Position numbers: made by a program. DNA of 38,725 nucleotides from a virus (Duplodnaviria > Heunggongvirae > Uroviricota > Caudoviricetes): the IMG/VR virus record IMGVR_UViG_646311924_000013; one strand, given 5' to 3'. Positions 6,001 to 9,000 of this stretch are shown here, in pieces; position 1 is the stretch's first letter; every line of letters begins with the position of its first letter.

Positions 6001-9000
6001 CGACGCCGTGGCAGCACATATTTTGTATCAAAAGCCGGGGAGCGTTATCGCCGGGCAGTGGCGCTTATTGTTCGCCAGCAGCGGCTGAAATTAAGCCTGT
6101 CCGGACGGCTGGCAATAAAAATTATTGCAGAACCACCGGATAAGCGCCGCCGTGACCTGGACAATATTCTGAAAGCACCGCTGGATGCGCTGACGCACGC
6201 GGGGTTGTTAATGGACGATGAGCAGTTTGATGAAATCAATATTGTACGTGGAAAGCCAGTATCTGGTGGACGTCTGGGGGTGAAGATTTACCCCATAATG
6301 CTTGAAGGGCAGGTTAAAAAATGAAACTGGAAGATTTACCGAAATACTACTCCCCAAAATCCCCTGGCCTGACCGATGCATCGGCCTCAACGTCAAAAGA
6401 TGCGCTGAGTATCACTGATGTGATGGCCGCGCAGGGCATGACACAGAATCGGGCTGAGATGGGGTTTTCTGCGTTCCTTGGGAAAATGGGCATTAGTATG
6501 AATGACAGAGAGCGGGCAACAGAATTGCTGACAGAATATGCACTCAGTCGGTGTGATCGCGTGGCGGCGTTAAGAAAACTCCCGGCAGAAATAAAACCGG
6601 CAGTGATGCGTATTATGGCTTCGTATGCGTTTGAAGATTATGCCCGTAGCGCGGCGAGCAAAAAACAGTGCCCCTGCTGTCACGGAAAAAAATTTATTGA
6701 AAGCGAGGTTTTTACAAACAAGATCCAGTATCCGGATGGTAAGCCGCCAGTGTGGGCAAAGTGCACAAAAGGCGTGTATCCGTCTTACTGGGAGGAATGG
6801 AAAAAAGTCAGGGAGGTGGTAAAAGTTGCCTGTCCGGAGTGTGGAGGGAAGGGAGAGGTATCCACTGCCTGTAAAGATTGTCGTGGGCGCGGTGTTGCCA
6901 TTCATCGTGAAGAGTCGGAAAAACAGGGTGTGCCGGTTTTCAGAAACTGTCAGCGTTGTGGTGGGCGTGGCTATGAAAGATTACCTTCAACGGAGGCATT
7001 TAATGCCATATGTAATGTAACCGATGCCATATCTCTTGATACATGGAAAAAAACAGTTAAACGTTTTTACGATACGCTGGTGGTGCAGTTTGATATTGAA
7101 GAAGCATGGGCAGAACAACAACTGAAAAAGGTGACCAGATAGCTTTGTTGATTTTTCCCGAATCTGTGGTAAATTTGCCCTAACGATGGGCGTTTTATGC
7201 CTGACGTTAGAAGATTTTTTACACCCCGCCGCCTGGCGGGTTTTTTATGACTGAAATCGCGTCAGTACAGTAAACGCGCTGGTGGCGGTGAATACCGGTC
7301 TTTCAGCTTGCTGGCTTTTTTGACAAGAGTTATTGGTGTGTCACGTTAACCGGAAAAGGGAAAAAAGCATGCTAAAACAGCAGGATATGACAGAAACCGC
7401 CAGAGCAGTGTTTAATGAATTAAGCGTCACCGAACCGGCGACAGTCGGGGAGATTGCGCAGAATACTTACCTTTCACGCGAACGCTGCCAGTTAATACTG
7501 ACCCAGCTTGTTATGGCGGGTCTGGCAGACTATCAGTTCGGTTGTTACAGACGCCTTCAGTCCTGAAGGCTTTTTTATTTGTGGTAAATGGGCGGCTGGT
7601 GGGTGTTAGGGGCACTCACCAGCCATCTGCTCATGCGTCTGGATCACAAGCAAACCTCAGGCCCACTGCTTTGCGCAAAAGCAGAATGAGCCTATCAGAG
7701 ACAGGCTTAATGATCCATGTTTAACACTGTAAAAATATCCAGTTGTGAGTTGATCAACGCTGACTGCCTGGAATTTATCCGGTCGTTACCCGAAAATTCT
7801 GTTGACCTGATAGTCACGGACCCGCCGTACTTTAAAGTGAAGCCTGAGGGCTGGGATAACCAGTGGAAGGGCGACGATGATTACCTGAAGTGGCTGGACC
7901 AGTGTCTTGCGCAGTTCTGGCGGGTGCTGAAACCTGCCGGAAGTCTTTACCTGTTCTGTGGCCATCGCCTGGCATCTGACATTGAAATCATGATGCGTGA
8001 ACGCTTCAGTGTGCTGAACCATATTATCTGGGCGAAGCCGTCCGGACGCTGGAACGGGTGCAACAAGGAAAGCCTGAGGGCGTATTTCCCCGCCACAGAG
8101 CGCATTCTGTTCGCGGAACATTATCAGGGGCCGTATCGTCCGAAAGATGCCGGGTATGAGGCGAAGGGCAGGGCACTGAAACAGCATGTGATGGCTCCGC
8201 TGATTTCTTACTTTCGTGATGCGCGCGCTGTCCTGGGGATAACGGCAAAACAGATTGCAGATGCCACAGGAAAGAAAAACATGGTGTCGCACTGGTTCAG
8301 TGCCGGTCAGTGGCTGCTGCCGAACGAAAGCGATTATCTGAAATTACAGGCGCTGTTTGCCCGGGTGGCAGAAGAGAAGCATCAGCGCGGTGAACTGGAA
8401 AAGCCCCACCACCAGCTGCTGGAGACGTATACTTCACTGAACCGGCAGTATGCGGAACTGCAGAGTGAATATAAACATCTGCGGCGGTATTTTGGCGTGA
8501 CGGCGCAGGTGCCGTACACGGATGTGTGGACGCATAAACCGGTGCAGTACTATCCCGGGAAACATCCGTGCGAAAAACCGGCAGAAATGCTGCAGCAGAT
8601 AATCAGTGCGAGCAGTCGTCCGGGTGACCTGGTTGCAGATTTCTTCATGGGGTCGGGTTCGACAGTCAAAGCCGCGATGGCGCTGGGGCGTCGTGCAACT
8701 GGCGTTGAGCTGGAGACTGAACGTTTTGAGCAGACGGTCAGGGAAGTACAGGATTTAGTCAGTCAGAACGGATGATATTGCAGGATTAGTTACGTACCGT
8801 TATTATCCTGCGCCCGGCCCTTTAGCTCAGTGGTGAGAGCGAGCGACGCATAATCGCCAGGTCGCTGGTTCGAATCCAGTACAACGCGCCACACTTATTT
8901 TCCCTGGCTCGCTTTTGCGGGCCTTTTTTTAAATGTCTCACAATTCAGGCGGTTGACTGTTGTCTGGTTTGCGGGGAGTTTGTTAAAAGAAACTGGCATG

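Follow-up and report, generated by a model that had tools for sequence, protein, structure and literature searches.

A predicted M.EcoGII-type adenine methylase, its conserved leader and a small winged-helix protein gene in the late operon of a lambdoid prophage of Escherichia coli O111

The DNA examined here, a stretch of 38,725 nucleotides from the Caudoviricetes record IMGVR_UViG_646311924_000013 (referred to below as the window), holds a gene for a predicted N6-adenine methyltransferase, preceded by a conserved leader of 137 nt and by a small open reading frame (ORF) coding for a protein of 65 amino acids. This module lies in a lambdoid prophage of Escherichia coli O111 that is negative for the Shiga toxin (Stx) genes. 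Positions 1-18370 of the window are collinear with the chromosome of E. coli E2863 (NZ_AP018802.1, 99.84% identity), and positions 7143-9369 occur as 100% identical copies in many O111 strains. Upstream of the module are found, in this order, the genes for a DUF968 protein (4888-5937), RusA (5950-6324) and the antiterminator Q (6321-7142, PF03589), while a tRNA remnant, two small-RNA genes, the gene for a NanS-p-like esterase (9370-11316), and the lysis and terminase genes follow it. DNA resembling the module region was found in 3467 of the 5426 complete E. coli genomes, usually more than once (median, two places), and matches 356 phage records, mostly of Stx-converting phages. The interpretation favored here, and judged to be quite probable, is that the module, as first cargo of the late operon, protects progeny DNA from restriction.

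The methylase gene (7717..8775, + strand; WP_000483498.1) codes for 352 amino acids and belongs, by homology, to the M.EcoGI/M.EcoGII family of beta-class N6-adenine methyltransferases. The protein matches PF01555 (N6_N4_Mtase) with E=7.7e-44 over residues 29-340, and holds a DPPY motif at residue 35 and an FMGSG motif at residue 310, which is the motif order of the beta class, with the recognition domain in between. These features confirm the beta-class amino-methyltransferase of 352 residues called by an earlier note on this DNA, made from the sequence alone. The central insertion mentioned there is indeed present, but it is just the ordinary target-recognition domain of the class. The nearest solved structures are 8urk/9c3u, M.RsrI and CcrM, all of the beta class, and those matched structures that carry molecule names (M.RsrI, CcrM, M.MboIIA, M.PvuII and DpnA) include no Dam enzyme. 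Accordingly, the comparison with Dam-like phage enzymes that had been proposed does not hold, given the beta-class motif order and the lack of GATC specificity expected from homology.

The closest characterized relative is M.EcoGII (349 amino acids), with which the window methylase shares 325 of 349 positions (two gaps, 93% identity over the full length); the reference sequence was machine-read from the PDF of Table S1 of PMC11551740 with a few reading errors, so the true identity may be slightly higher. Phage 1720a-02, which has been named as the carrier of an enzyme very similar to M.EcoGII (PMC5778455), matches the module region at 97.8% DNA identity. M.EcoGII acts on adenine whatever the surrounding sequence, methylating double- and single-stranded DNA and, more weakly, RNA, and shields DNA against many restriction enzymes; it is silent in the lysogen, and its constitutive expression makes cells sick (PMC5778455, PMC7544214, PMC12707154). 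M.EcoGI and the reconstructed ancestors of the family, which are of far lower identity, are also non-specific (PMC5778455, PMC11551740). In the O111 outbreak strains, two such homologues have been described, predicted by REBASE to be 'nonspecific', and the only methylation seen in the methylomes of two O111 lysogens was at GATC, at CTGCAG and, for one strain, at CRARCAG, with no non-specific N6-methyladenine (PMC6602927). The window methylase would thus be an M.EcoGII-type enzyme with context-free activity on adenine, from a phage gene family that is already known and very common.

The small ORF (7369..7566, + strand; ATG at 7369, TGA at 7564-7566) encodes the protein WP_000917735.1 (phrog_331), for which there is no NCBIfam model and whose entry in PHROGs is of unknown function. 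In pairwise comparisons of 22 loci with the window, its codons show a total of 498 synonymous versus 273 non-synonymous changes (28 versus 6 in the locus L045), an excess that argues for a real gene under purifying selection. Searched alone, the window protein only yields sub-threshold Pfam matches to winged-helix families (e.g., TrmB, 18.9 bits), and the matches of a profile search against PDB sequences, although winged-helix-like, are all sub-threshold as well. Among 30 diverse relatives, 13 match DprA_WH (best E=1.3e-8), and the remaining Pfam matches are all to winged-helix families. The AlphaFold2 model built from the diverse alignment, with a pLDDT (predicted local distance difference test) value of 92.7, places helices at residues 9-16, 26-33 and 37-49 and strands at residues 53-56 and 59-62, that is, the three helices and beta-hairpin wing of a canonical winged helix. 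With this model, Foldseek returned matches to OhrR, MarR and IclR with a probability of 1.0 and template-modeling (TM) scores of up to 0.82, as well as to the winged helix through which O-methyltransferases dimerize and to the one with which SelB binds RNA. It supersedes a first model built from 20 close homologues (pLDDT 64.8), with which Foldseek was uninformative. The protein is therefore predicted to fold as a winged helix, and the HTH-like (helix-turn-helix) character attributed to it at first reading is borne out by the model, the Foldseek matches and the Pfam matches of its relatives. It has only two conserved cysteines (C40 and C59). Lambda orf-64, which occupies the equivalent position in lambda, is unrelated to the small ORF.

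To follow the module beyond E. coli, 80 related loci were drawn from species-representative genomes, 78 of which have enough upstream DNA to look for the small ORF. In these loci, from Mixta, Klebsiella, Salmonella, Xenorhabdus, Yersinia and other Enterobacterales, Q is found upstream of the module and holin/endolysin genes are found downstream. The Q genes beside the module belong to three unrelated Pfam families (PF03589, PF06323 and PF06530/DUF1133), which ties the module to the position of first cargo of the late operon and not to one particular antiterminator. The small ORF is located 120-200 nt 5' of the methylase gene in 55 of the 78 loci, from Escherichia to Photorhabdus, at 39-98% identity, and its position and orientation relative to the methylase are constant wherever the two are paired. 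The small protein is thus strongly associated with the methylase, but not obligatory. In a recurrent deletion variant of the region among E. coli prophages (viral contigs L092, L104, L127 and others), the equivalent of window positions 7607-8925 is missing, and with it the methylase, the tRNA and all but the first 27 nt of the leader; these 27 nt, still preceded by the small ORF, join directly to the STnc100 region.

Between the two genes, the 137 nt in front of the methylase (7580..7716, + strand) form a conserved and structured leader, which was aligned from 49 non-identical species-level loci, with or without the small ORF. Its length is 141-145 nt (including 6 nt of coding sequence) whether the small ORF is present or not, and its identity to the window averages 71%, compared to 36% at the 4-fold degenerate sites of the methylase gene, which means that this non-coding stretch is selected as strongly as coding sequence. 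The window leader has a minimum free energy of -60.6 kcal/mol (z=-4.1 versus shuffles). Its elements are hairpin P1 with an extension (7588-7634), P2 (7626-7655), P3 (7671-7685), and a long-range helix that pairs 7642-7651 with 7703-7713 (GGUCACAAGC with GCUUACUGAUC), the latter corresponding to positions -14 to -4 of the methylase start. No Shine-Dalgarno sequence precedes the methylase ATG, no match to Rfam was obtained for 7570-7716 at E<=1, and the leader sequence was not found in the literature searched. The covariance model detects a single leader copy in the window, as well as weak, shortened matches in Photorhabdus and Xenorhabdus loci, which keep P1.

Two mutually exclusive folds can be drawn for this leader. 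The closed structure, comprising P1, its extension, P3 and the long-range helix, is 95.4% paired over the alignment and includes 10 pairs with double changes; none of 500 shuffles reaches the observed values, and slid controls do not come close either. In P1, 8 of the 11 pairs have changes on both sides, the extension (AUGGGC with GCUCAU) is 99.7% paired, and the long-range helix over the methylase start region is 94.8% paired in the 49 loci. P2 (UUCGCU with AGCGAA) excludes both the P1 extension and the long-range helix. Its pair 52-76 is the best covarying one (CG in 28 loci, AU in 9, UA in 7 and UG in 4, never unpaired), and P2 is further strengthened by the changes seen in the most divergent loci. 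The energies of the closed and P2 states differ by 2.1 +/- 4.7 kcal/mol on average. The model of pairing 1:2 and 3:4 in the closed state and 2:3 in the open one gives the leader the topology of a translational attenuator. As for the strand, the frequent G-U pairs in the conserved helices point to a structure of the + strand RNA; an antisense RNA, considered because of a terminator-like hairpin on the minus strand (7707-7689), was rejected, since these G-U pairs are compatible with the + strand only.

Other features of the leader deserve a mention in their own right. Of the 49 loci, 48 retain the GATC (Dam site) of window positions 7710-7713, 4-7 nt before the methylase start, where it forms part of the long-range helix's 3' arm. 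An upstream ORF starts at the invariant ATG 7588 (7588-7689) and has 33 codons in the window, reading MGGWWVL* (with tandem Trp) in 20 of the 49 loci and being as short as MGG* in others. A conserved leader peptide with tandem Trp was rejected, as the length varies from 3 to at least 45 codons, the frames differ and the peptide is not conserved. Finally, the -10 region of the late promoter pR' at 7162-7174 (ATCTGTGGTAAAT) recurs with one mismatch at 7577-7589 (ATTTGTGGTAAAT), right after the second terminator described below; within the 621-nt region searched, this recurrence is only marginally beyond chance. A second promoter at the start of the leader (TGTGGTAAAT) is not supported, because the hexamer is not conserved as a promoter (GGAAAT, GAAAAT and GTAAAT in different loci).

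The module is placed behind a set of signals typical of lambdoid late operons. Q (6321..7142, + strand; 273 amino acids) matches PF03589 (Antiterm) with E=5.3e-52 and is annotated as 'antitermination protein' in RefSeq. It holds a zinc-finger region of the DnaJ type (CxxCxGxG), and the promoter core downstream of it is still lambda pR'-like, including the AACGATGGG pause element. This core (7148..7192, + strand) consists of TTGATT, a spacer of 16 nt, TG-n-TAAATT and then the pause-like element, and aligns with lambda pR' (GGTAAATTTG...AACGATGGG; TGTGGTAAATTTGCCCTAACGATGGG versus TTGGGTAAATTTGACTCAACGATGGG), which in lambda is also located just 3' of Q. The roles given here to these elements are presumably those established for lambda pR'. 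A simple consensus scan does not call the core at 7148-7192 a promoter. It is followed by a tR'-like intrinsic terminator (7225..7246, + strand), with a hairpin at 7225-7240 containing 6 G-C pairs, a T6 tract and an energy of -12.6 kcal/mol. A terminator is found at this place in all aligned relatives, regardless of the Q family, and the RNA made from pR' to tR' in the absence of Q modification of the polymerase would be of about 65 nt. The module does therefore sit right after a terminator that is predicted to be Q-dependent, as had been proposed, with Q, a lambda-like pR' and tR' all found upstream.

A second intrinsic terminator, t2 (7553..7576, + strand), is formed by a hairpin at 7553-7570 (GCCTTCAGTCCTGAAGGC, -10.5 kcal/mol) and a T6 tract at 7571-7576. 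The stop codon of the small ORF (TGA, 7564-7566) lies in the loop of this hairpin, in agreement with the earlier note. By its sequence, the hairpin should terminate transcription in the window. The stop codon is inside a hairpin in 39 of the 55 loci with the small ORF, the stem sequences vary among them (GCCTTC/GAAGGC, GCCTCC/GGAGGC, GCTGCC/GGCAGT, GTTGCCC/GGGGTAAC), and a U-tract of terminator quality follows in only 14 of the 55; what the family conserves is the stop-codon hairpin itself. A fusion of the small ORF and the methylase by read-through or frameshifting was discarded: both share a frame, but an in-frame TAA (7585-7587) intervenes and the spacing varies among loci. Overall, 10 terminator-like sites are found in 6900-9500, compared to 2.5 +/- 1.6 in shuffles, which is four times more.

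Upstream of the small ORF, a block of approximately 40 nt (7306..7345, + strand), which reads CTTGCTG-N10-ACCAGAGTTATCTGTATGTCAC in relatives, is kept in 20 of 21 aligned related loci, including those with unrelated Q genes, while its flanks are not alignable. This block was not called a promoter by consensus scans in the window, Salmonella or Klebsiella, and it holds no palindrome and no convincing sigma-70 promoter. The same scans called no sigma-70-like promoter inside the module in any of these three.

From these elements, a model for the expression of the module can be proposed. In Stx phages, pR' is known to be constitutive in the lysogen, with its transcripts terminated nearby (PMC7547250). 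In the window prophage, the pR' transcripts of the lysogen would likewise end at tR', with t2 as a backup; any read-through would meet t2, so that the methylase would remain silent. Both the presence of two upstream terminators and the O111 methylomes are consistent with such silence. After induction, the Q-modified polymerase is expected to pass both terminators and to transcribe the winged-helix gene, the leader, the methylase, and the lysis and morphogenesis genes. The methylase would then convert adenines to N6-methyladenine in all contexts on the replicating phage DNA, and the methylated progeny DNA would resist most adenine-sensitive Type I, II and III restriction in the next host. Expression would be confined to the doomed cell because such a methylase is toxic. 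Whereas the anatomy of the locus, the homology, the constant placement of the module, and a leader that is conserved and covaries are all observed here, the non-specific activity, the silence in the lysogen and the toxicity are extrapolated from the literature on the 93%-identical enzyme.

The leader would add a further layer of control. It probably limits or times translation, as the long-range helix, which belongs to its most stable fold, would hide positions -14 to -4 of the methylase and formation of P2 would free this region. The winged-helix protein may open the leader, in the way Com of phage Mu opens the mom mRNA; a winged helix is able to bind an RNA hairpin, the matched one of SelB being an example, which is a point in favor of a small protein acting on RNA. 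By this analogy, the most likely role for the small protein would be a regulatory, Com-like one. The full version of this proposal, in which the leader is a riboregulator that switches between the closed and open (P2) folds to gate a toxic methylase, with the winged-helix protein as its RNA-binding, Com-like activator, can only be put forward tentatively, the odds being rather against it. As a possible variant, the winged helix could bind N6-methyladenine DNA instead, and shield the hypermethylated phage genome from methylation-dependent nucleases.

Several observations weigh against parts of this model. On the side of the enzyme, the approximately 24 positions at which it departs from M.EcoGII are concentrated in the recognition domain and the linker (residues 164-265), and some sequence preference of this allele may exist; in vivo anti-restriction by the M.EcoGII family is not demonstrated in the literature searched, where no induction studies of M.EcoGII homologues were found either. 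On the side of the leader, sequestration of the ribosome-binding region is moderate, with an unpaired probability of 0.37 versus 0.47 when the upstream sequence is shuffled (the region is less accessible in 41 of the 49 loci). The covariation comes from related sequences, with few independent events that are certain: the P1 extension shows one-sided changes only, and double changes are few in the long-range helix (3 cells) and in P3 (3 cells). On the side of transcription, the consensus scan that excludes internal promoters also misses pR' itself. With regard to the small protein, its ORF is missing in 23 of the 78 loci, 20 of which keep the leader; 12 of 75 E. coli viral contigs retain it although the methylase is gone; and the stability of the closed leader does not correlate with its presence (p=0.13). 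Taken together, these last three points leave the role of dedicated controller unproven.

Indeed, the alternative that survives best is that the small winged-helix gene is independent of the methylase, being a separate moron, for instance one encoding a DNA-binding regulator of host or prophage genes, that shares the same insertion hot spot. Besides the loci where one gene occurs without the other (the 12 viral contigs mentioned above lack leader, methylase and tRNA), the small ORF is bracketed by terminators like a moron and has its own conserved upstream block, and the structural neighbors of its protein are mostly DNA-binding regulators. Against such independence speak its constant position and orientation 5' of the methylase over a wide range of genera and identities, the tiny size of its family (85 representatives among 1.84 billion proteins, all of them small stand-alone proteins), and the fact that no convincing promoter of its own was found by consensus scans. 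This alternative is considered unlikely on balance, but it is one to be taken seriously.

Somewhat less likely is that the 137-nt stretch is not a translational switch at all, and that it acts at the DNA level or as another type of RNA element, such as a promoter, a sigma-dependent pause, a processing or stability element, or a short ORF. The leader opens with TGTGGTAAAT, the repeat of the pR' -10 region, the invariant ATG starts a short ORF that reads MGGWWVL* in 20 loci, and no ligand or protein partner of the leader is known. However, the -10-like hexamer and the upstream ORF are as variable as described above, and the compensatory changes, the G-U pairs and the near-complete pairing over the start region in the 49 loci favor a structure of the + strand RNA.

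That RNA (host or phage transcripts, or rRNA), and not phage DNA, is what the enzyme targets in vivo appears very improbable. M.EcoGII does methylate RNA and DNA-RNA hybrids in vitro (PMC5778455, PMC11551740), but its initial rate on RNA is about 90-fold below that on DNA (0.12 vs 11.12 units; PMC11551740 Table S3), and both the position beside anti-defence cargo and the analogy with Mom and Hia5 favor the protection of DNA. One example of such cargo is found in Xenorhabdus indica, where a gene with a Tad2-like (Thoeris anti-defence 2) domain lies directly 3' of the methylase homologue (L055:6174-6953); this single locus suggests that the interval from Q to holin may gather anti-defence genes.

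A shade less probable still is a sequence-specific orphan enzyme of the Dam or CcrM kind, devoted to epigenetic regulation and not to blanket anti-restriction. The methylase is solitary and conserved, CcrM is among its solved beta-class relatives, and the differences from M.EcoGII fall mostly in the recognition region. Nevertheless, the enzyme is 93% identical to one shown to be non-specific (PMC5778455), M.EcoGI and the reconstructed ancestors are non-specific too (PMC5778455, PMC11551740), the O111 lysogens exhibit no extra methylated motif (PMC6602927), and a late-operon gene behind two terminators is in a poor position for heritable regulation. An orphan methylase expressed late, for anti-restriction or for epigenetic control, had been put forward in the earlier note: late expression and anti-restriction fit the identity to M.EcoGII, the position and the lack of a nuclease, whereas epigenetic control is unlikely, since no sequence specificity is expected from homology.

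The absence of a restriction partner, also claimed there, stands after a search for an adjacent cognate nuclease: the annotation of the 20-kb RefSeq stretch covering window positions 1-18370 (L001) lists no gene for a restriction enzyme; PADLOC returned only methyltransferase matches for the methylase, and nothing for the neighbors tested; and no nuclease adjoins the methylase in the window or in the 80 related loci, where its neighbors are Q, tRNAs, holin and endolysin. It is barely credible that the module is half of a restriction-modification system with an unrecognized nuclease and the small ORF as C-protein-like controller: a small DNA-binding-type protein directly 5' of a methylase does recall the C-protein-controlled Type II systems, and the DUF968 protein encoded 1.8 kb upstream has a weak HNH-like match, but DUF968 is a separate nin-region gene (detected in 45 of the 80 related loci at a variable distance from the methylase, and without a PADLOC match), the small protein is a predicted winged helix and not an Xre-type C protein, no palindromic C-box lies upstream, and no sequence-specific nuclease can be cognate to a methylase that is non-specific.

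Downstream of the methylase, a chimeric and probably dead tRNA followed by a terminator (8816..8930, + strand) marks the place of argN, argO and stx in related Stx2a phages. ARAGORN finds no tRNA here, and Rfam gives a tRNA match of 37 bits for 8822-8881 only; the terminator is at 8906-8923. In the 'tRNA-Met' that RefSeq annotates at 8816-8892, the 5' part corresponds to the first (ileZ-like) tRNA of a related Stx2a phage and the 3' part to its third (argO-like) one, and the acceptor stem no longer pairs. It resembles a scar left when argN was lost through a deletion between the T-arms of tRNAs. Those Stx2a phages whose Q is the same carry Q, the small ORF, the methylase, three tRNAs, stx2AB and nanS-p, with stx located after the tRNAs, approximately 380 bp past the methylase stop. 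The place of the module had been described as the one where Stx phages carry other cargo; this is not the case for these Stx2a phages, which have the same small ORF and methylase there, and stx further down. In the window, the slot for stx (8929-9369) is empty of stx and holds instead an STnc100-like small RNA (8967-9159, 144.5 bits) and, on the opposite strand to it, the anti-GcvB small RNA AgvB (9161-9222, 96.5 bits, identical to the Rfam consensus).

Elsewhere in the window, RefSeq annotation transferred to it places a RelE/ParD toxin–antitoxin pair on the minus strand, upstream of the nin region (~3910-4472), and copies of IS1203 at the window start (~1-888) and in the lysis cassette, between the holin and lysozyme genes (~12487-13700). 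Because of this latter insertion, the prophage may be lysis-defective.

Among the known systems, M.EcoGII and M.EcoGI, from prophages of E. coli O104:H4 C227-11 (EGT69837.1), resemble the window enzyme in size, beta-class layout and prophage origin. The substitutions that separate M.EcoGII from it (about 24) are mostly in the recognition domain and linker, and the window enzyme has three extra C-terminal residues. The literature on M.EcoGII does not describe an upstream small ORF, terminators or a leader. Another parallel is the com-mom operon of Mu, together with the com-like genes accompanying Hin1523/M.HaeV, Hia5 and Nma1821, where a toxic enzyme with broad adenine-modifying, anti-restriction activity is likewise expressed only late; there too, a gene for a small protein (62-65 amino acids) comes first, and the start site of the modification gene is masked by structure in the mRNA (PMC6483171, PMC3299994). 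In Mu-like prophages, the com-like genes that precede non-specific adenine methylases have been proposed to play the same opening role (PMC6483171, PMC3299994, PMC12707154). However, Mu Com is a CCCC zinc finger that binds an mRNA hairpin, whereas the window protein has two conserved cysteines and is a predicted winged helix; neither the proteins nor the RNAs nor the enzymes of the two modules resemble each other in sequence; and the Mu operon is under the control of C and Dam, while the window module lies in a lambdoid late operon under Q.

The leader also shares with the translational attenuators of the ermC type the same four-segment topology, in which the start of a methyltransferase gene is hidden by 1:2 and 3:4 and exposed by 2:3, with a short ORF that starts in segment 1. 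Unlike in ermC, the upstream ORF of the window leader is not conserved in length or sequence, and no stalling signal or inducer is known for it; the resemblance is topological only. With the C-protein Type II restriction-modification systems, the module shares the small DNA-binding-type protein directly 5' of the methyltransferase, but it differs from them in lacking a nuclease, an Xre-type fold and a C-box, and in the predicted lack of sequence specificity of its methylase. Other phage-encoded solitary N6-adenine methyltransferases, such as T4 Dam, P1 Dmt and VT2-Sa Dam, are GATC-specific and of a different class by motif order (alpha). The window methylase, of the beta class and context-free by homology, differs from these Dam-type enzymes on both counts. 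M.EcoVT2Dam and M.EcoGV have likewise been listed as GATC enzymes (PMC6602927).

The methylase gene by itself adds nothing new, as its family has been characterized, is sold as a reagent, and is found in most E. coli genomes. What goes beyond the published descriptions, within the literature searched, is the leader RNA, in which two folds compete, and the dedicated winged-helix partner proposed for it, and both merit a modest follow-up. The potential interest lies in how phages restrain a dangerous enzyme, a point that is not addressed in the M.EcoGII literature searched, and for which the window offers an architecture of two terminators under predicted Q control, a two-fold RNA leader and a putative dedicated winged-helix protein. 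If this proves true, the module would represent a second solution to the same problem as com-mom of Mu, unrelated to it in sequence and fold, and would explain why such methylases are invisible in the methylomes of lysogens.

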